From NCBI GenBank assembly GCA_015232575.1, contig JADFZL010000026.1, positions 13,688 to 77,687 on the forward strand: a stretch of 64,000 bases of DNA. Reading direction: 5' to 3'. Below are positions 8,688-36,323 of the stretch, one piece after another (within the stretch, counting starts at the first letter, position 1; each line of letters opens with the position of its first letter). Both the position numbers and the translations under genes were made by a program. The notes beneath the pieces are model-generated. The model was not told where the DNA came from. It saw nothing but the letters and a program-made list of their open reading frames with translations, and ran no database searches. This DNA is from Candidatus Rifleibacteriota bacterium (GTDB lineage Bacteria > Muiribacteriota > Ozemobacteria > Ozemobacterales > Ozemobacteraceae).

Positions 8688-11069
8688 TTACTGACTCTGC
8701 TTTGTTTTCAGAGTATCATATTCTGCTTTGGCTTTATTCATTTCCTGTGCAACTTTCTGAGCGTCTTCCTGTCTGCCTTTTGCAATCATATCATTGTAGA
8801 GTCTGTAGAGTTCCTGATATTTTGCATAAGCAATCTGGACTTCTGAAGCATAAGTTCCAACAGGTTCTATTTCACTTGATGCCGAAACCTGCACATCCTG
8901 TATGTTTGCGGTTACTGGAATTTCGCTTGATCCTGCAACTGCACCAATTCCTACACTCTGACCCGGGTCAATTGTCGACTGATTATAAGGATTTGCTCCG
9001 GTAGGAGTCGCATAAGCCTGAGCTGGAATGCTGTCTTTGCCAAACAATTGCGCAATTTTATGAGCTGCCCAGTTTCCAACATAACCACCAACGATACCAC
9101 CTATTACTGTTCCTATCGGACCCAATGCAGAACCGAGTATTGCACCGGCTGTCGAACCAATTGTCTGTCCACCAACACCTATCCAGTCGATGTGTTTGAA
9201 AGCTTCTTTAATTGAGAATTTTCCATTTTTAAGATCACCGGCAAGATATGCTCCTACTGAACCACCAACGATTGAACCGAATGTCGGAGCAAGTGCTGAG
9301 AGAATACCACCTACAACCGGTACTGCTGTAAGGAATGGAACGAAGAATGATCCGGCAGCTGCACCAGTAACTGAACCAACAACACCACCTGCAAATTCTG
9401 CCGAACAAACAGTTTTTACAGCTTTCTTAAGACTTGGCTTTTCACCATTCATCATCTGAGTAACAAGATCAACACCAACAGTTATTCCAGCTGTCATAAG
9501 AAGATTCTTGGGGCTGAAACCTGACTTTACACTATCTTTAACATTCTGGAAACCCTGGTTAGTCATTGCCTTTCCAGCTTCATAACCCTGGCGTAATTTG
9601 CTGGATGTAACTTCTTTAAAACCAGGTTTTGATGAATCGCCCTGCTGTGAAGTCTGTGCTGGAACTCCATCGTCTCCAACCTGGCCATTCTGATTGCCCT
9701 GGTTGCCCTGGTTGTTCTGATTTCCTTGATTATTCTGATTACCCTGGCCTGGGTTTACACCATCATCACCGGTGTTCTGATTATACTGATTGCCCTGACC
9801 TGATTGGTTACCTTGTCCTGACTGGTTGCCTTGGCCACTCTGATTGCCCTGTCCTGACTGGTTGCCTTGACCAGATTGATTGCCCTGTCCGCTTTGATTT
9901 CCATGACCGGATTGGTTGCCCTGTCCGACCTGGCCTGACTGATTTCCTTGTCCTGACTGATTACCCTGCCCTGACTGATTTCCCTGCCCTGACTGATTTC
10001 CCTGTCCGGGAACATAACCATCGTCACCAGCAGTTCCCTGGTTATATTGGTTTCCCTGGCCTGATTGATTACCTTGGCCAGCTTGATTACCTTGGCCAGA
10101 CTGATTTCCCTGACCTGACTGGTTGCCTTGTCCGGCTTGATTACCCTGACCACTTTGATTGCCCTGTCCGGGAACATAACCATCATCAGTTGGGGTTGTG
10201 GTTGGTTTTGGTGTCTGACTTCCACGTCCAAAAAGTCTCGCAAAACGATCTTTGGCACTCTGTAAAGCATCGCCTATTTTACTACCGGTAGATTTTGCAA
10301 CTGTCTGACCAGACTGATTACCAGAATTAAAATTATCTCTTACATTCTGACCAAAGCTGCTGGCTTTATCACTAACTGCCTGCAAACCATCTTTTCCAGC
10401 CTGGTAAGTTTTATTACCAAAATTTTGTCCGCTTTCCCTGCCAGCGGTAAAACTATCTTTGATCTGGCTTCCATAGCCGCTGAGTTCATTCTTTATGAAA
10501 GAACCGGTGCTCTGATTTCCGCTCTGTCCAACGGTTGAAACTTTGCTGTCTGCTGCTGTAACGCCCTGAGAAACCTGAGCATTTTGTGTGGACTGGTTAA
10601 CCGGAACTGTTTGGCCACCTGCATTGGCATTATTGTACTGACCAGTCTGAACAGACTGATTTCCGGGAATATTCGCTTGACCGCCTGAATGATAAGGTGT
10701 TTGAACAGTCTGATTATTAGCTACTACACCTGCGCCCGACGGCGAAGTATTTACCTGAACTGGTTTCCCTGCACTTGTAGCTGCTGTAGTAGCGGCAGTT
10801 GATCCTGCAGAGGAATCGAAAAGAAGTTTGTAGTACTGACTCATTTCGAGTGCAATAGGTTTTCCATCAACATATCTTACGTTGTAATATGTTGTCCTGG
10901 TTCCAGTTTTAACAGGAACCCACTGTCCTGGGGTAATCTGGAAACTTGTACCATCAAGATTGGCAACAGTTGTACCCTGGTACGCCATCAATGGTGTTTC
11001 AAGAAGGAACCCAGCAATCAACACGATACACAACAACCTTGAAATTAGTCGAAGATGTTTTTGTTTCAT
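8688..11069 (-). CDS. secreted protein with Q/N-rich hexapeptide tandem repeats (GNQSGQ)n, glycine-zipper hydrophobic segments and a C-terminal coiled coil
   Basis: Signal peptide (LLCIVLIAGFLLETPLMAYQG). About 180 aa of GNQ(S/A)GQ repeats punctuated by DDGYVPGQ...GNQYNQ. GxxxG-rich segments (GGVVGSVTGAAAGSFF...; IGTVIGGIVGGYVGNWAA). Terminal helical heptads. Confidence 0.75.
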   Translation of the reverse strand: MKQKHLRLISRLLCIVLIAGFLLETPLMAYQGTTVANLDGTSFQITPGQWVPVKTGTRTTYYNVRYVDGKPIALEMSQYYKLLFDSSAGSTAATTAATSAGKPVQVNTSPSGAGVVANNQTVQTPYHSGGQANIPGNQSVQTGQYNNANAGGQTVPVNQSTQNAQVSQGVTAADSKVSTVGQSGNQSTGSFIKNELSGYGSQIKDSFTAGRESGQNFGNKTYQAGKDGLQAVSDKASSFGQNVRDNFNSGNQSGQTVAKSTGSKIGDALQSAKDRFARLFGRGSQTPKPTTTPTDDGYVPGQGNQSGQGNQAGQGNQSGQGNQSGQGNQAGQGNQSGQGNQYNQGTAGDDGYVPGQGNQSGQGNQSGQGNQSGQGNQSGQVGQGNQSGHGNQSGQGNQSGQGNQSGQGNQSGQGNQSGQGNQSGQGNQYNQNTGDDGVNPGQGNQNNQGNQNNQGNQGNQNGQVGDDGVPAQTSQQGDSSKPGFKEVTSSKLRQGYEAGKAMTNQGFQNVKDSVKSGFSPKNLLMTAGITVGVDLVTQMMNGEKPSLKKAVKTVCSAEFAGGVVGSVTGAAAGSFFVPFLTAVPVVGGILSALAPTFGSIVGGSVGAYLAGDLKNGKFSIKEAFKHIDWIGVGGQTIGSTAGAILGSALGPIGTVIGGIVGGYVGNWAAHKIAQLFGKDSIPAQAYATPTGANPYNQSTIDPGQSVGIGAVAGSSEIPVTANIQDVQVSASSEIEPVGTYASEVQIAYAKYQELYRLYNDMIAKGRQEDAQKVAQEMNKAKAEYDTLKTKQSQ
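9654..10187 (-). repeat. 18-bp tandem repeat array (encodes GNQSGQ), higher-order organised into three blocks
   Basis: The period-18 repetition CTGATTGCCCTGTCCTGA / CTGGTTGCCTTGACCAGA is visible directly in the DNA. The opposite-strand ORFs here are artefacts of the repeat. Confidence 0.85.
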
Positions 11070-20401: not shown

Positions 20402-21283
20402 ATGAAAAATTGGCGTATCAGGTTATCACTTTTTTCGGCAGTCATTATTTTTTCTGTTATTTTTCTTTCTGGCTGCGGAGGCGGCGGGGGATCAGGTGGT
20501 TCAGGTGGCGGAATAGGATTATATGAGGTTCCGTTTGTGAACAAATCAGCAGCAAGAATTTCAAGCCTTGGTGTAGGATATGATATTTCGGCATCTATTC
20601 AGGAAAGAAATAACCTCAATTTTGAACTTCTGAACATGAAAACTTATCGCTCTTTTTTCACAGGCCTTGGAACTGATATAAATCAGTCCAGTTATTTTTA
20701 TCAGGGTTCACCAGGTTTTATTTATGGTTATATGTTTGATTTTCCCGGGACAACAAGCGGAAATATTAAGAATGCACTGGTAAATGATTCCAGCTACAAC
20801 ATTTCAAGCAGAGATCCAAAAAGGCTTCAACCAAATGAGACAAGAACAATATCAACAAAGATTATGGTTGGGTATCCCGGTCAGAGTCGCCCATCTGGGT
20901 TTCTGGGAATTTTTATCACCAATAGTGAATACAAAGAATGGGTTTCACTTGGAAAACGCGGAATAAGATTTTACGTAACCTGGCAGGCTTTTGATGCAAA
21001 ATCAAACAATACATACAACATAGATGCTCCGTTGGAAGCATATTTCGATTACAATCTTACAACCGATCCTTATGACGGTGAAACTGATCCTTACAGCGGT
21101 GGGACCGGCAATACCGATCCTTACAACGGCGGAACTGGCAACACCGATCCTTACAACGGTGGAACCGGCAACACTGATCCTTACAGCGGTGGAACCGGCA
21201 ACACTGATCCTTACAGCGGCGGAAACAGTGGCACTGATCCTTACGCTCCCAGTTCAGGATACACAAATCCGTATAATCAATAA
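20402..21283 (+). CDS. lipoprotein with Gly/Ser linker and C-terminal (TDPYNGGTGN)x5 decapeptide repeats
   Basis: Lipobox LSGC, then GGGGGSGGSGGG, then five near-perfect decapeptide repeats at the C-terminus. Confidence 0.7.
   Translation: MKNWRIRLSLFSAVIIFSVIFLSGCGGGGGSGGSGGGIGLYEVPFVNKSAARISSLGVGYDISASIQERNNLNFELLNMKTYRSFFTGLGTDINQSSYFYQGSPGFIYGYMFDFPGTTSGNIKNALVNDSSYNISSRDPKRLQPNETRTISTKIMVGYPGQSRPSGFLGIFITNSEYKEWVSLGKRGIRFYVTWQAFDAKSNNTYNIDAPLEAYFDYNLTTDPYDGETDPYSGGTGNTDPYNGGTGNTDPYNGGTGNTDPYSGGTGNTDPYSGGNSGTDPYAPSSGYTNPYNQ
21060..21262 (+). repeat. 30-bp tandem repeats (ACTGATCCTTACAGCGGTGGAACCGGCAAC) x about 6
   Basis: GATCCTTA recurs every 30 bp from 21086 to 21236. Confidence 0.8.
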
Positions 21284-31901: not shown

Positions 31902-32591
31902 TTGACTAGAGAATTGAGTCATGCTAAGATTCCCCACATGTCAACAAAAATTCGAATGATTCTTCTTGGGATTGCTGTACTGATACTGTTACTTGTTATT
32001 GCCGGAGTTGCTTACAGGGCAAGTAAAAAAGGCCATACAGAAGGAGATGGCAGCAAACAAACTGAAACAGCGGATGCGCATGGAACAGCAACAGCTCCAC
32101 AAGGAACAGGAGAGACTCCAGCATCTCACGGTTCTGAAACTGCCAGCAGCCATGGAAGCACTGCTGCTCCGACTGAAACAAAGGAACCTTCTTCTTCACA
32201 CGGATCAACCAAAGAGCCTGCCAACGCTAAGCCTGCAGATGCACACGGCTCTGCTCCAGCAGGAAAAACTCCTGCTGCTGGTGATACATCACGTTTTTCG
32301 CTTGGTGATTTCACAGCACCAGCCAGAGATGAAGAAGTGCATTATATTAAAATTGAGGTCGAGCTTGAATTTACTGGTGACCTGGAGAAAGAATTAACCA
32401 GAAGAAAAAATGAATTGCGCGATGCTGTAACGACAATAATAATGAAACTGACTATTCAACGAGCAAAAGAAGATTATATTGACAGATTTCTCCATCAGGA
32501 AATCCAGAACAAATTGAATGAAATTCTTGGAACCAGCGGCACAAAAAACCGGATAATCAGAATCTACATTCCTTCCTTTCTGGTAAACTAA
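31902..32591 (+). CDS. fliL: flagellar basal-body-associated protein FliL with His/Gly/Ser-rich insertion
   Basis: TM helix. C-terminal FliL domain (FSLGDFTAPAR...IKIEVELEF...RIIRIYIPSFLVN). The start may be ATG 31941. Confidence 0.75.
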   Translation: MTRELSHAKIPHMSTKIRMILLGIAVLILLLVIAGVAYRASKKGHTEGDGSKQTETADAHGTATAPQGTGETPASHGSETASSHGSTAAPTETKEPSSSHGSTKEPANAKPADAHGSAPAGKTPAAGDTSRFSLGDFTAPARDEEVHYIKIEVELEFTGDLEKELTRRKNELRDAVTTIIMKLTIQRAKEDYIDRFLHQEIQNKLNEILGTSGTKNRIIRIYIPSFLVN

Positions 32592-32670: not shown

Positions 32671-33714
32671 ATGGTTGAAACCTTATCACAGAATGAAATA
32701 GATGCTCTGCTTTCTGCGCTGAACGCAGGCGGAAGTCCTGCTCCAGATGCGGGTGGCGGTGGCGGAGGCGGCGGTGGAGCCGGTTTTTCTGGAAAAGGTG
32801 AAGCAGAGCGACCACAAAAAAAAGGAAAACTGTATGATTTCAAAAGACAGACAAAGTTTTCCAAAGAACAGATGGGTACAATCCAGCTTATCCATGAAAC
32901 ATTTGCCCGACTTGTTGGAACATATTTATCAACTGAACTGAGAGCCTATGCTCAGGCAAACATCGTTTCAGTTGATCAGTTGACATTCGAAGAACTTCTT
33001 CGTTCAATTTATTCGCCAACTTTTATTACAGGCTTCAGATCAGAAAAACTTGATGGAAAAGCACTTATAGATATAAATTTAAATGTAGTATTCACAATTC
33101 TGGACAGATTACTTGGTGGAAATGGTACACCGCTGGGCACTCTCAGGCAGCTGACAGAAGTAGAAAATCAGATAATGCAGAGAATAATGACACGTATTCT
33201 TGCCTTGCTCAGAGAAGCCTGGATAAACGTCGTAGACTTAACTCCCAGTATTGAATTTATCGATTCAAATCCGCAGTTTGCACAAATTGTCCCACCCGGA
33301 GACATGGTACTCGCTGTTGTATCAGAAATAAAAATACACGATGTAACGGGCCTGATGAATCTCTGCGTTCCATATAATACGATAGAATCGGTTGCATCAA
33401 AGCTGAACGCTGCCTCGTGGTTTGCAGCCATAAGAAAAGAACCGCTTTCGACAAACATCAAAGCTATTACTCATCAGGTAAGAAAAATTGATCTTCCATT
33501 TGTGGTTGAGCTTGGCACTGCAACACTTTCGCTGAATGACATCCTGAATCTACATCGCGGCGACATTTTAGTAACCGATCGTCTTGTTAAGCAGGATCTT
33601 GATATCAAAGTTGGAAATCTTATCAAATACAGGGGCCGTCCTGGTGTAATGGGAAAGAAAATGGCGGTCTCAATCACTCAGGTCATTGAAAATCCCGAGG
33701 AGGAGTTACCGTGA
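32671..33714 (+). CDS. fliM: flagellar motor switch protein FliM
   Basis: N-terminal [10 protein letters not shown] CheY-binding peptide and FliM middle domain. Contains a poly-Gly insert ([12 protein letters not shown]). Confidence 0.85.
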
Positions 33715-35153
33715 CAGATTTATTGTCTCAGGAAGAAATTGATGCTCTATTAAGAAGTGGTGGAAGTATGGGAGGCGGAGAAGAAACAACACCGCCGCCA
33801 TCGGCTCCGCCACCCTCTTCGCCGCCTCCACCTCCAAGACAGCCCCCTGTTTCCGCTTCGCCGCGTCCGCCGCAGCAGGCGGCTTCGCAAGCATCTCATG
33901 GTGGAGCAAGCAGGTCCCCTGCAGGTTCAGATGTATCTGCAGTTCTTTCTCCTGAAGAAAAAGAAAAGCTGACAGAAGTCGCAAAGCTTTCAATGGGTGC
34001 TACATCTTCTGTTCTTCAAATGCTCCTGAACAGGCAAGTTGATCTTTCCCTTTCCCAGATGCGAATTATGACCCAGGATGACCTTGCATCTGAGTTCCAG
34101 GGAAACGATATGATAATTGCAAAAATTTCATACGTTGAAGGTTTTGCTGGAAATTCATATCTATTGCTTGAAAAACCGGTCTCAGCAATCATCGGCGACC
34201 TGATGATGGGTGGTGATGGTGCAAATCCAGAATTTCAGGAAATGCACAAATCTGCCGTCGGCGAAATGATGAACCAGATGATGGGGAAGACTACTACGAC
34301 CCTGTCAGAAATTTTTAAAAAACGTGTTGACATTAACCCACCTAACGTGGATTTAATAAATTTCCAATCAGCCCCTCCGCAGATGGAAGACTTCAAGCCT
34401 GGTGCAAAATTTCTACGAATGGGATATCATCTCAAGGTTGGTCAGGAAATAAATTCTGAGATGATTCAGCTTCTACCGCTTGATTTTGCTAAAAGCATGG
34501 CCTCTGATTTAGCTCAACCATCGAAACCAGTAGCAAAAAAGCCAGTTCCCCCACCCCCTCCAATGAGCTCTGGCGCACCTGAACAACAGCAACCAGCTCA
34601 AATGATGCCTCCTGGCGGTATGCAAGGAATGCCCGGGATGGGCGGAATGCCTGGAATGGGTGGTATGCCTGGAATGGGCGGTATGCCTGGAATGGGCGGT
34701 ATGCCCGGCATGGGAGGTATGCCTGGAATGGGTGGTATGCCCGGCATGGGCGGTATGCCTGGAATGGGTGGCATGCCTGGAATGGGCGGTATGCCCGGAA
34801 TGGGTGGCATGCCTGGAATGGGCGGTATGCCCGGAATGCAGGCGGCGAACCCCGCGGAATTTGGAATGTTTCAGATGCCAGGCGGAATTGGCCTGCAATC
34901 GAACATTGATCTTCTGCTTGATGTTCCTCTTCAAATAACAGTTGAATTGGGACGAACAAAAATGTTAATAAAAGATGTACTTGAATTAGGTATAGGTTCT
35001 GTTGTAGAGTTAAATAAATTGGCAGGTGAGGCAGTTGAAGTTCTGGTTAATAATAAACTGATTGCCAAGGGCGAAGTTGTTGTTATTGACGAGAATTTTG
35101 CCGTAAGAATAACAAGTATTGTTAATCCGCAAGATCGATTGCAGGCTATCTGA
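33711..35153 (+). CDS. fliY: flagellar motor switch protein FliY (CheY-binding peptide - CheC-like domain - FliN/SpoA domain) with Pro-rich and (MPGMGG)n inserts
   Basis: [10 protein letters not shown] at the N-terminus. CheC-like middle domain. C-terminal FliN domain ([33 protein letters not shown]). GTG start overlapping the fliM stop. Confidence 0.8.
34617..34850 (+). repeat. 18-bp tandem repeat x about 12 (ATGCCYGGNATGGGNGGN, encoding MPGMGG)
   Basis: ATGCC recurs every 18 bp from 34629 to 34827. Confidence 0.85.
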
Positions 35154-35173
35154 ACAGGAGGATACCCAATCCG

Positions 35174-35536
35174 ATGGGGAAAACAGTTTTAATAGTTGAT
35201 GACGCAGCATTCATGAGAATGATGATACGCGACATCCTGTCAAAAAATGGCTATGAGGTTCTTGGTGAGGCTCAGACCGGCAAGGAAGCAGTTGAGTTGT
35301 ATAAAAAGCTTAAGCCGGATTTGGTTACCATGGATATTACCATGCCGGAGATGAATGGCATTGACGCGGTTAAAGCAATAAAAAGCCTTGATCCCGGTGC
35401 CAGAATCGTAATGTGCAGTGCCATGGGGCAGCAGGCAATGGTAATTGATGCTATTCAGGCAGGTGCAAGAGATTTTGTCGTCAAACCATTCCAGCCAAAT
35501 CGGGTTATTGAAGCAGTTCAAAAAGCTCTTCGCTGA
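35174..35536 (+). CDS. cheY: chemotaxis response regulator CheY
   Basis: Single REC domain, 120 aa, LIVDDAAFMR...DITMPEMNG...KPF. Confidence 0.85.
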   Translation: MGKTVLIVDDAAFMRMMIRDILSKNGYEVLGEAQTGKEAVELYKKLKPDLVTMDITMPEMNGIDAVKAIKSLDPGARIVMCSAMGQQAMVIDAIQAGARDFVVKPFQPNRVIEAVQKALR

Positions 35537-35591
35537 AAACTGTATCATTAACTTACGGAAAACTGATTTTTACCTCAGAAAAAAACGACCA

Positions 35592-36323
35592 GTGAGGTTG
35601 TTTTTTTTCGGGGCGTTTTTTGTTTTCCTTTGTTTCTCGTCCTTTGCTCAAAATCTTTCGTCCTCTTCAAAACCTCTGAAAGCCAAAGAACAGGGAAATA
35701 AAAGCAAAGAAGTCGAACAGACTGAATTTGTCTCTAGTGTCACGTCCGCTGTAATAGAACCAAAAAAAGACTCTCTGGAAGCTTCTTCAGAAAAAGAACT
35801 TGATAAAAAAAAATCATTCCCTGCTGAAAATGATTTGATTTTTCCTGCAACTGATTCAGCAAACCTCAGAAAGATTCCCGAGTCTGACCCTCTTTCAACT
35901 GCGGTGAACATACTTTGTTCTTTCGCATTTATCATTACTCTTATGCTTGCATTATCATGGTATCTGCAGAACAAGGGTGTATGCAAAGGCAGCGATTTTG
36001 GAAGAACCCTCTGTGTTATTCCGCTTGATCACAAACACTTCATTTATATTGTCAACATTGTTGGAAAAATACTTGTCCTTGGAGTTACGGATCATCAGAT
36101 TAATCTTCTCTGCGAAATAACAGATCAATCTGCCATTGATGAATTGAATATAAAATCTTCAGATACTTCCAACAAAGTTGGTGTTGAACGAATTTTCAGT
36201 ATTTTCAGCAATGCAAAAAAGAATTTATCTGGAAATAATGAACCATTTTCAGAAATCATGAGACACGTAAACATTGCTAAAAACCAGATTGACGATATAA
36301 AATCAAGAAAAGAATCTAATTGA
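35592..36323 (+). CDS. fliO: flagellar biosynthesis protein FliO/FliZ
   Basis: Signal-like N-terminus, TM helix, then LVLGVTDHQINLLCEI, which matches the FliO signature (E. coli LVLGVTAGQINLLHKL). GTG start chosen to avoid the overlap with cheY in the track ORF. Confidence 0.7.
   Translation: MRLFFFGAFFVFLCFSSFAQNLSSSSKPLKAKEQGNKSKEVEQTEFVSSVTSAVIEPKKDSLEASSEKELDKKKSFPAENDLIFPATDSANLRKIPESDPLSTAVNILCSFAFIITLMLALSWYLQNKGVCKGSDFGRTLCVIPLDHKHFIYIVNIVGKILVLGVTDHQINLLCEITDQSAIDELNIKSSDTSNKVGVERIFSIFSNAKKNLSGNNEPFSEIMRHVNIAKNQIDDIKSRKESN

Follow-up and report, generated by a model that had tools for sequence, protein, structure and literature searches.

An in-frame coding minisatellite in fliY and the Met/Pro/Gly-rich linkers of the flagellar switch protein in Riflebacteria

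The closest described counterparts of the protein considered here are the FliY proteins of Bacillus subtilis and Thermotoga maritima, in which a CheY-binding peptide at the N-terminus is followed by a CheC-like middle domain, a linker and a FliN domain, and whose genes are found in the order fliL-fliM-fliY-cheY. The T. maritima protein is 343 residues long, and the units of the flagellar C-ring contain three FliN-type domains per FliM (PMC4832279). The FliY literature that we examined makes no mention of a repeat array in either of the two proteins. Full-text searches on FliY linker repeats, on Met-rich or low-complexity FliY and on the flagella of Riflebacteria yielded nothing on such a feature, and no experiments on any FliY linker were found in the literature searched. 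In the 64-kb window (the whole stretch of DNA that was analyzed), both the architecture and the gene order are the same as in B. subtilis and T. maritima. However, the described FliYs are shorter, whereas the linker found here comprises some 135 residues and includes a perfect hexapeptide array. A second difference concerns the first CheC active site, where this clade has Lys instead of Asn.

Judged by its sequence, the product of the open reading frame is FliY, which is predicted to act as a CheY-P phosphatase and to form part of the C-ring. The whole product scores 327.9 bits against NCBIfam NF005995 ('flagellar motor switch phosphatase FliY'), where the equivalog cut-off is 218, and the gene resides in a flagellar operon with the local order fliL-fliM-fliY-cheY-fliO, the last gene being fliO-like (Table 1). 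The N-terminus carries, at residues 5-14, a motif of the type LSQxEIDALL, and alignment A1 shows no variation at L5, Q7, E9, I10, A12, L13 and L14; based on established knowledge of FliM and FliY, we take this motif to be a CheY-binding peptide. The middle domain matches the corresponding domain of T. maritima FliY in the PDB (4hyn_A, residues 77-263, E = 3.8e-30) and includes Pfam CheC at residues 178-213. Its second active-site motif, S181-x3-E185-x2-N188...P210, conforms to (D/S)-x3-E-x2-N-x22-P and is invariant in the same alignment, and the first site has Lys92 in place of the expected Asn. The C-terminal FliN/SpoA domain is recognized by TIGR02480 (fliN, residues 398-473, 101.7 bits versus a cut-off of 84), by Pfam FliMN_C (residues 401-471, E = 1.4e-24) and by the FliN structures 1yab and 1o6a (residues 398-479, E = 1e-28). 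The product of the adjacent cheY gene is presumably both the substrate and the ligand of FliY. There were no Rfam matches in the window.

Table 1. Position of the genes, domains and repeat elements in the window (aa, residues of FliY)
Feature	Position	Strand	Remarks
fliL	31902..32591	+	Pfam FliL; first in local gene order
fliM	32671..33714	+	Pfam FliM and FliMN_C; directly upstream of fliY, stop overlaps fliY start by 4 nt
fliY ORF	33711..35153	+	GTG start, 480 aa; switch protein and predicted CheY-P phosphatase; Pfam CheC and FliMN_C, NCBIfam NF005995
N-terminal motif	33723..33752	+	aa 5-14; putative CheY-P-binding peptide common to FliM
CheC-like middle domain	33939..34520	+	aa 77-270; 4hyn_A match, AlphaFold2 pLDDT >90
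Whole interdomain tether	34521..34931	+	aa 271-407; predicted unstructured (AlphaFold2; alignment A1)
Degenerate 5' edge of array	34617..34628	+	GMQG; opens uninterrupted Gly-X-Y run
Core array	34629..34826	+	11 in-frame 18-bp units ATGCCNGGNATGGGNGGN = (MPGMGG)11, aa 307-372
Latest duplication in array	34755..34826	+	two 36-bp double units, 34755-34790 and 34791-34826, one base apart
Degenerate 3' unit	34827..34844	+	MPGMQA
FliN/SpoA C-ring domain	34902..35147	+	aa 398-479; TIGR02480 and 1yab/1o6a
cheY	35174..35536	+	Pfam Response_reg; directly downstream of fliY

The array was correctly located by the original prediction, both in its coordinates (34617-34850) and in its placement between the CheC-like and FliN domains. 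Tandem Repeats Finder describes it by a period of 18, 11.7 copies, 85% matches and 0% indels (34629-34838), and its score of 308 tops that of all other arrays with an 18-bp period in the window. It is also the best lag-18 segment of the entire window, with 166 of 198 positions identical at that lag, where 30% is expected from composition (binomial P = 2.6e-55). The array that had been counted as twelve near-identical units is real, and resolves into 11 perfect units and two partial ones. Seven distinct DNA versions occur among the 11 units, and these differ exclusively at positions 6, 9, 15 and 18, i.e. at all four 4-fold degenerate sites, the other 14 positions being invariant, so that the earlier observation of wobble at third positions only was exact. 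Units two apart are more similar than neighbours, which gives the array a 36-bp higher-order period. The longest exact run measures 26 nt at an offset of 18 and 42 nt at an offset of 36, the latter being part of the most recent duplication. Its units are arranged head-to-tail, have a length divisible by three and follow the frame of the open reading frame, as is characteristic of a true coding minisatellite. The open reading frames on the minus strand or in other frames (34489-34959, 34509-34934, 34598-34810 and 34660-34938) were rejected as genes, as they are stop-free artefacts of the repeat.

The divergence of the units at synonymous sites only points to purifying selection on the peptide. 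At least seven substitution events have occurred among the 11 units, all of them at the four 4-fold degenerate sites (P = 2.7e-5 if unconstrained). This test counts the array of the window alone and uses all 11 consecutive units; a codon-position test on the arrays of other loci was discarded, as it is conditioned on identical peptides and thus provides no independent evidence of selection. The array constitutes a clean example of peptide-level selection on a coding minisatellite. Moreover, because the units have diverged at synonymous sites, the array is less prone to slippage than a perfect repeat and forms a poorer substrate for it than the classical contingency loci. Considering the 85% identity between units and the limited length of the exact runs, the label of slippage 'hotspot' was overstated.

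AlphaFold2 predicts that the FliY tether is disordered. The model, a monomer built on a 23-sequence alignment, shows no secondary structure in residues 271-407, and the pLDDT is around 61 for residues 271-290 and stays below 50 almost throughout residues 288-407. The tether consists, in order, of a Lys/Pro-rich start with PPPPP, a Gln-rich stretch, the MPGMGG array and a conserved segment of 13 residues. The array, together with its two degenerate units, makes up the central two-thirds of this tether of about 135 residues and predicted disorder, which would join the CheY-binding peptide and the CheC-like phosphatase domain to the FliN domain at the base of the flagellar C-ring. Such a tether could act as an entropic leash that governs how concentrated the phosphatase is around the switch. 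Every unit gained or lost would change how far the phosphatase and the CheY-capture module can reach, in small steps of some 2 nm of contour length each.

A comparison with related species revealed that a Met/Pro/Gly(/Gln) tandem-repeat linker is present in every FliY of the candidate phylum Riflebacteria (22 of 22 homologues in the alignment and some 30 loci that were retrieved). The four residues Met, Pro, Gly and Gln constitute 77-89% of the linker, except for one divergent lineage (L003, 52%), and Met accounts for about 22% of the linker residues across 61 clade members, despite the different units. The linker length ranges from 63 to 138 residues, and depending on the lineage the repeat unit has 4, 5, 6, 7 or 9 residues (12-27 bp, always multiples of three). 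At the DNA level, examples of such arrays are 10.8 copies of 12 bp in L006, 10.7 copies of 21 bp in L010 (Ca. Ozemobacter sibiricus), 7.2 and 7.7 copies of 27 bp in L044 and L014, respectively, and 5.1 copies of 36 bp in L016. The DNA arrays of the different lineages are independent, and all of their periods are multiples of three. Across the clade, the linkers are conserved in composition and loosely so in length, and each lineage has a repeat unit of its own. A whole candidate phylum that builds its flagellar-switch tether from fast-turnover Met/Pro/Gly repeats appears not to have been described before.

The turnover becomes visible between close relatives. Within a related species group of Riflebacteria (L114, L115 and L116), the loci are 94-98% identical over 1.9 kb and the sole indels, of 15 and 60 nt, correspond to one and four units inside an (MPGMG)n array. 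Since these genes differ by whole-unit indels only, in-frame change of copy number is real in this fliY family, and the proposal that such changes alter the length of the linker holds in its in-frame part for the arrays of these relatives. The same was observed at the protein level. The flanking domains of P0007 and P0023 are 100% identical and their linkers count 113 and 93 residues, and the number of MPGMG units is the only difference between P0015, P0014 and P0020. These copy-number differences rest on metagenome assemblies, which can mis-size repeats, although one independent pair, L116 and L117, which stem from separate samples and were assembled by different programs, is identical. The repeats would be born, expanded and contracted in each lineage via whole-unit slippage or unequal recombination, and selection would preserve the composition and confine the length to some 60-140 residues.

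We consider it likely that these data are best explained by a flexible FliY tether that is encoded by an in-frame minisatellite and subject to whole-unit changes in copy number, which would tune the length of the tether, always in frame, and never switch the gene off. The original prediction had also foreseen out-of-frame changes, by which slipped-strand mispairing would frameshift fliY and turn motility on and off. In fact, a tandem repeat does reside inside an essential motility gene and related arrays do vary in copy number, but unit slippage cannot break the frame because the unit measures 18 bp and all related periods are multiples of three. In addition, the array has no homopolymers longer than 3 nt, its units have been scrambled synonymously, and not a single frameshifted linker was encountered among about 75 homologous proteins and loci, which represent relatives and not the same species. 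A contingency locus is thus close to refuted and hardly deserves any credence, which removes a false lead: the array is no switch for phase variation of motility. It is more conceivable, although still improbable, that the array is real and its copy number an artefact of assembly, either collapsed or expanded. The array, at about 230 bp, exceeds typical short reads, and the window probably derives from a draft genome or a metagenome assembly of an uncultured lineage, its closest relatives all being metagenome-assembled genomes. Nevertheless, the units are marked by synonymous differences and two independent assemblies of a relative gave identical arrays. The copy number in the window was probably assembled correctly, because the longest exact repeat of 42 nt is shorter than the k-mers normally used in final assembly, such that k-mers of at least 55 should follow a unique path. 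No same-species sequence across the array was found in 185,579 GTDB species genomes, in JGI metagenomes or in protein searches. In the same genomes and metagenomes, no relative exceeded about 65% amino-acid or 72% nucleotide identity across fliY, and a second protein search with the 300 residues of FliY that precede the repeat returned no closer relative. The exact FliY and FliM proteins have no database record; the exact CheY was found solely in a sister species of 93% nucleotide identity, present in SRR6837582/ERZ27286469, whose two 1-kb contigs begin 8 nt before the fliY stop and hence miss the array.

The remaining alternatives concern the peptide and the messenger. A role as plain spacer leaves the methionine content of the clade linkers unexplained. 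Ordinary flexible linkers are not rich in Met, and since Met has been kept at about 22%, the tether peptide may do more than tether. For instance, the roughly one hundred Met-rich tethers per motor could build up a disordered layer of weakly hydrophobic 'bristles' along the C-ring base. Such a layer would self-associate or bind partners, for example CheY, FliH, or chaperones and substrates of export, in the way that the Met-rich tails of Hsp70 (GGMP), GroEL (GGM), SRP54 and p23 contact hydrophobic clients. Besides the constant share of Met, the synonymous-only divergence is in line with selection on the peptide itself, and Met/Gly- or GMP-rich linkers are also found in unrelated FliY lineages (P0068 and Paenibacillus). 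The nearest look-alikes of the array peptide in a search of 5.8 billion proteins were SRP54 fragments, i.e. M-domain tails, and p23-like tails. GGMP repeats are a recognized feature of parasite Hsp70 and are reported to affect the chaperone function of PfHsp70-1 and its binding to Hop (PMC7926355). However, the resemblance to chaperone tails is compositional and not one of homology, and the wide variation in length and unit would rather be expected of a spacer under loose constraint, which makes a Met-rich functional module rather unlikely. A more rigid structure could be based on the 25 uninterrupted Gly-X-Y triplets, GMQ-(GMP-GMG)11-GMP-GMQ, at residues 303-377, a run longer than the 20 triplets that we took as the minimum for collagen-like periodicity. 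The run is unique, as the longest ones in 61 clade proteins and 14 loci comprise 2-8 triplets, and the array segment has no PDB sequence matches other than collagens and a fibril protein that is collagen-like (8zxl_X, E = 2e-34). Given the stoichiometry of the C-ring unit cited above, three tethers could lie side by side, and three neighbouring FliY chains could wind into a rigid triple-helical rod. Yet alternate triplets read Gly-Met-Gly, Pro represents only one in six residues and there are no charged residues, all of which is unfavourable for the stability of collagen. Furthermore, a trimerization domain is not evident in the CheC-like and FliN flanks, and AlphaFold2, in a monomer run only, gives no structure. 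The 4-, 5-, 7- and 9-residue units of the relatives break the Gly-X-Y register, and a collagen-like domain as a conserved function of FliY was rejected on this ground. The run is most likely a by-product of the six-residue unit, and the rod must be regarded as very improbable. A joint reading, in which Met-rich chemistry and not length is selected, with a brush within the C-ring or at its base whose density is tuned by copy number and possibly the 25-triplet rod in addition, seems improbable to us; if true, a collagen-like rod of three FliY chains per C-ring unit would mark the first time that a flagellar motor is found to contain an element of the collagen type. Finally, the at least 24 in-frame AUGs upstream of the FliN domain could serve as internal starts for a FliN-only product. 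Such a product is reported for SctQ/Spa33, and in T. maritima, fliY seems to give rise to a FliN-like fragment by internal initiation as well (PMC4832279). The linker is unusually rich in AUG, and the operon around fliY has no separate fliN gene, the rest of the genome lying beyond the 64-kb window. Nevertheless, an AGGAGG-type Shine-Dalgarno sequence is absent in and after the array, unlike upstream of cheY, and no purine-rich, Shine-Dalgarno-like element is conserved before the conserved Met386 or Met389 codons across 30 loci. The RNA of the array is neither unusually structured nor unstructured (minimum free energy z = -1.4 versus dinucleotide shuffles, not significant). Internal initiation is thus also highly unlikely.

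The clade offers a natural allelic series, with tethers of 63-138 residues and varied units, in which the length and chemistry of the tether can be related to a CheY-P phosphatase that is anchored in the C-ring. In practical terms the significance is limited, since the organism has not been cultured and the gain or loss of one unit is predicted to have a small effect.

With the contingency loci of Neisseria, Haemophilus, Campylobacter and other bacteria the FliY array shares a tandem DNA repeat within a gene that is, in principle, prone to slippage. However, those loci have perfect repeats of 1-8 nt that are not divisible by three and shift the frame, whereas the array has an imperfect unit of 18 nt that keeps it, and it neither works like a contingency locus nor belongs to that class. 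The bacterial collagen-like proteins Scl1/Scl2 and BclA have in common with the array a Gly-X-Y periodicity that is encoded by a tandem DNA repeat, but they differ from it in that the array is low in Pro, has Gly-Met-Gly as alternate triplets, carries no charge and is not accompanied by a trimerization domain. Peptide words nearly identical to those of the array occur in Hsp70 (GGMP), in the M-domain of SRP54/Ffh, in p23-like proteins and in the (GGM)n tail of GroEL. These tails are terminal and belong to proteins that are not homologous to FliY, whereas the FliY repeat is an internal interdomain linker, to which their role in contacting clients and co-chaperones could be extended by analogy only. 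The array also resembles the bacterial coding VNTRs for disordered linkers, which likewise consist of head-to-tail units with a length divisible by three, encode a biased, unstructured peptide and, like the FliY-type arrays, differ by whole units between close relatives. Low-complexity regions in prokaryotes have been described to arise when short repeats proliferate (PMC10120016). The well-known examples of such VNTRs are mostly found in surface or secreted proteins, whereas the array described here lies in the cytoplasmic core of the flagellar switch and its peptide appears to be under purifying selection: a minisatellite of an ordinary kind in a new place.

The comparative evidence is clear for whole-unit turnover of such repeats in the FliY linker and for selection at the level of the encoded peptide. 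The array itself belongs to an ordinary class of elements: it is a coding minisatellite, in frame, for a linker predicted to be disordered. Tandem Repeats Finder (period 18, 11.7 copies, 85% matches, 0 indels, score 308) and in-frame translation both recovered it where the original prediction had placed it (34617-34850), with 11 successive ATGCCNGGNATGGGNGGN units that each yield MPGMGG in the frame of the enclosing ORF. Its lag-18 self-identity amounts to 166/198 positions versus the 30% expected by composition (P = 2.6e-55), and it forms the top lag-18 segment of the whole 64-kb window. The description of third-position wobble only was exact: the units vary solely at their four four-fold-degenerate sites, unit positions 6, 9, 15 and 18. 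The G+C content of 63% (versus 39% for the window) is imposed by the Met, Pro and Gly codons. The RNA structure of the array is unremarkable (z = -1.4), and ORFs over it on the opposite strand or in other frames were dismissed as repeat artefacts.

Coordinates of the fliY array and of other features of the window
Feature	Position	Strand	Description
fliY ORF	33711-35153	+	GTG start, 480 aa
Tandem Repeats Finder array	34629-34838		
Eleven MPGMGG units	34629-34826		
Degenerate unit GMQG	34617-34628		5' edge of array
Degenerate unit MPGMQA	34827-34844		3' edge of array
FliY Pro-rich insert	33795-33900		aa 29-63
FliY first CheC-type motif	33975-33986		E89-V-A-K92
cheY	35174-35536		
FliO-like ORF	35445-36323	+	from first possible start
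FliL	31902-32591		
FliM nine-Gly run	32752-32783		
GQGNQS protein	8688-11069	-	793 aa; repeats 9690-10171
Lipoprotein-like ORF	20402-21283	+	293 aa; repeats 21083-21244

The enclosing ORF scores above the NCBIfam equivalog cut-off for FliY (NF005995, 327.9 bits versus 218) and is neighboured by fliL, fliM, cheY and a FliO-like gene. The protein opens with a CheY-binding motif and has Pfam matches to CheC (aa 178-213) and FliMN_C (aa 401-471); aa 77-263 match the solved middle domain of T. maritima FliY (4hyn) and aa 398-479 the FliN structures 1yab/1o6a. The array codes for aa 307-372 and lies, as proposed, in the linker between the CheC-like and FliN domains. In an AlphaFold2 model built from a 23-sequence alignment, the pLDDT of the CheC-like domain is above 90, whereas aa 271-407 are mostly below 50 and without secondary structure; the FliN domain is also modelled at low confidence, as would be expected when an obligate oligomer is predicted as a monomer.

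Elsewhere in FliY, the first CheC-type active-site motif (E-x2-N) has Lys in place of Asn, as in nearly all Riflebacteria FliYs (the exception, protein P0001, has VANLS), and the second site (E185/N188) is intact, which probably leaves these FliYs with one catalytic site. The N-terminal Pro-rich insert is ~20 residues longer than in 22/22 aligned relatives, and a PPPPP run (aa 282-286) opens the linker. By analogy with B. subtilis FliY, in which an SPP motif makes translation EF-P-dependent (PMC6613710), these poly-proline runs would impose the same dependence. Read from its first possible start, the FliO-like ORF shares ~90 nt with the 3' end of cheY, and its true start probably lies further downstream. 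The flagellar genes end after this ORF, fliP/Q/R being absent there, and are followed by a DUF362 Fe-S protein and mutS.

The closest protein matches (60-70% identity) are all FliYs from MAGs assigned to Candidatus Riflebacteria, Rifleibacteriota or Ozemobacteraceae. In this clade, each FliY has a linker of tandem repeats rich in Met/Pro/Gly(/Gln), whose units depend on the lineage and include MPGQ, MPGMG, MPGMPGA, MPGMGMPGQ, MPGMGMQGQ and MPNMMPNMMPGQ. The DNA arrays are separate, with units of 12, 15, 21, 27 and 36 bp, each divisible by three, and some match the regularity of the window array (locus L010, 21 bp x 10.7 copies, 84% matches; locus L044, 27 bp x 7.2 copies, 92%). Judged from these sequences, the repeat tether is thus a constantly rebuilt family trait and no oddity of the window genome. 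Linker Met averages 22% in 61 clade members versus 9% in 56 more distant FliYs (mostly Firmicutes), and the median linker length is alike, ~108 residues. Met/Gly- or GMP-rich repeats also occur in certain distant FliYs: P0068, a 506-aa FliY of another lineage (30% identical), has a 177-residue linker of Met/Gly repeats, (GNPMMGGQMGGM)n, and Paenibacillus FliYs have repeats of the YGMPGMPPYGMP type. Repeat linkers rich in Met thus seem to have had more than one origin in FliY. A literature search gave no description of such a repeat in the FliY linker, and this seems to be a repeat of a known kind at a site not described before.

In one clade group the folded domains of FliY are 98-100% identical and the linkers span 93-130 residues; the proteins P0015, P0014 and P0020 differ solely in the number of MPGMG units. 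At the DNA level, the loci L114, L115 and L116 share 94-98% identity across 1.9 kb, and their sole indels, of 15 and 60 nt, lie inside the array. L116 is identical in sequence to L117, though the two derive from different samples and assemblers. Unit number is thus not uniform among related species, so the original prediction withstands this comparison, and the indels indicate that homologous arrays change copy number in frame, by whole units, over short evolutionary distances. As to the window sequence itself, the exact FliY and FliM are absent from a 153-billion-gene index, and no relative closer than ~65% was found in GTDB species genomes, JGI metagenomes or a protein search with the 300 residues preceding the repeat. 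The exact CheY was found only on two contigs of a sister species (93% nucleotide identity), both of which begin 8 nt ahead of the stop codon of fliY. These contigs (L001/L002, ~1 kb each, compared with window 35148-36206; SRR6837582 via Logan, ERZ27286469 via ENA) begin at one and the same base. Their cheY DNA differs from that of the window by synonymous changes only, and the N-terminal spacer of the downstream FliO-like protein shows strong divergence and a 30-nt indel.

The 11 units encode one peptide, but their DNA comes in seven versions. To account for these, seven or more substitution events are required, all at the four synonymous sites, a pattern with P = (12/54)^7 = 2.7e-5 if substitutions were unconstrained; this argues for purifying selection on the array peptide and against a brand-new neutral product of slippage. 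Similarity is higher between units two apart than between adjacent units, which gives the array a higher-order period of 36 bp. The latest event was a double-unit duplication (34755-34790 and 34791-34826, one mismatch), which produced the longest exact repeat of 42 nt. The proposal of a slippage hotspot holds in part: stretches of 26-42 nt that match exactly leave room for slippage, but, from what is known of slipped-strand mispairing, the array should be a far worse substrate than a repeat without mismatches. Phase variation of motility by out-of-frame change had also been proposed. The 18-bp unit, like every clade unit, preserves the frame on slipping, the array has no homopolymers longer than 3 nt (the longest of the gene, A6 runs, lie outside it), and a linker frameshift is absent from all of the ~75 homologous proteins and loci. 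Together these rule out a phase-variation switch, and what stands of the interpretation is in-frame whole-unit turnover, as seen in homologous arrays.

Other low-complexity coding repeats are present in the window. Another 18-bp coding minisatellite, larger than that of fliY, lies in a protein with a signal-peptide-like N-terminus, ~35 GQGNQS copies (with 36/54/81-bp higher-order periods) and a Gly-zipper-like C-terminal region with a weak match to PF13488. A lipoprotein-like ORF that begins LSGCGGGGGSGG and has no Pfam matches ends in at least five copies of TDPY(S/N)GGTGN (30-bp unit, 5.4 copies, 87% matches). FliM has a nine-Gly run after its N-terminal CheY-binding motif and FliL a long spacer rich in Ser/Thr/Ala/His/Gly that contains SHGS(T/E)A quasi-repeats, so the flagellar proteins of this genome commonly carry low-complexity inserts.

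The six-residue unit places Gly at every third position over 25 triplets (aa 303-377), versus only 2-8 in relatives, and the PDB sequence matches of the segment are collagens. Nevertheless, a collagen-like triple helix in the FliY linker is unlikely, since the run of Gly-X-Y triplets is confined to the window lineage, the periodicity being missing in relatives, and the segment contains Gly-Met-Gly triplets, is low in Pro and lacks charged residues and a trimerisation domain. Internal initiation yielding a FliN-only product has been suggested for Thermotoga fliY and shown for Spa33 (PMC4832279). Such a product is unsupported here, as no Shine-Dalgarno-like element is found within or 3' of the array, nor a conserved one ahead of conserved Met codons across 30 loci.

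Among the readings of the linker, a disordered leash is the best supported. In this reading the FliN domain would be held fast in the C-ring base, and ~135 flexible residues would suspend from it the CheY-binding peptide and the CheC-like phosphatase, keeping the phosphatase locally concentrated around the switch, the site of CheY-P binding. FliY is a switch-located CheY-P phosphatase in B. subtilis and T. maritima (PMC7355467). Each hexapeptide is estimated to add ~2 nm of contour length but just a few tenths of a nanometre of mean span, so that gaining or losing a few units is expected to be almost neutral, in line with the spread of 63-138 residues among relatives. The leash leaves the conserved Met richness unaccounted for. 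In a 5.8-billion-protein set the array peptide matched mainly SRP54 M-domain tails and p23-like tails that share peptide words with it, and GGMP repeats are known from parasite Hsp70, where they are functionally relevant (PMC7926355). By analogy with these proteins, the tether could additionally make weak hydrophobic contacts.
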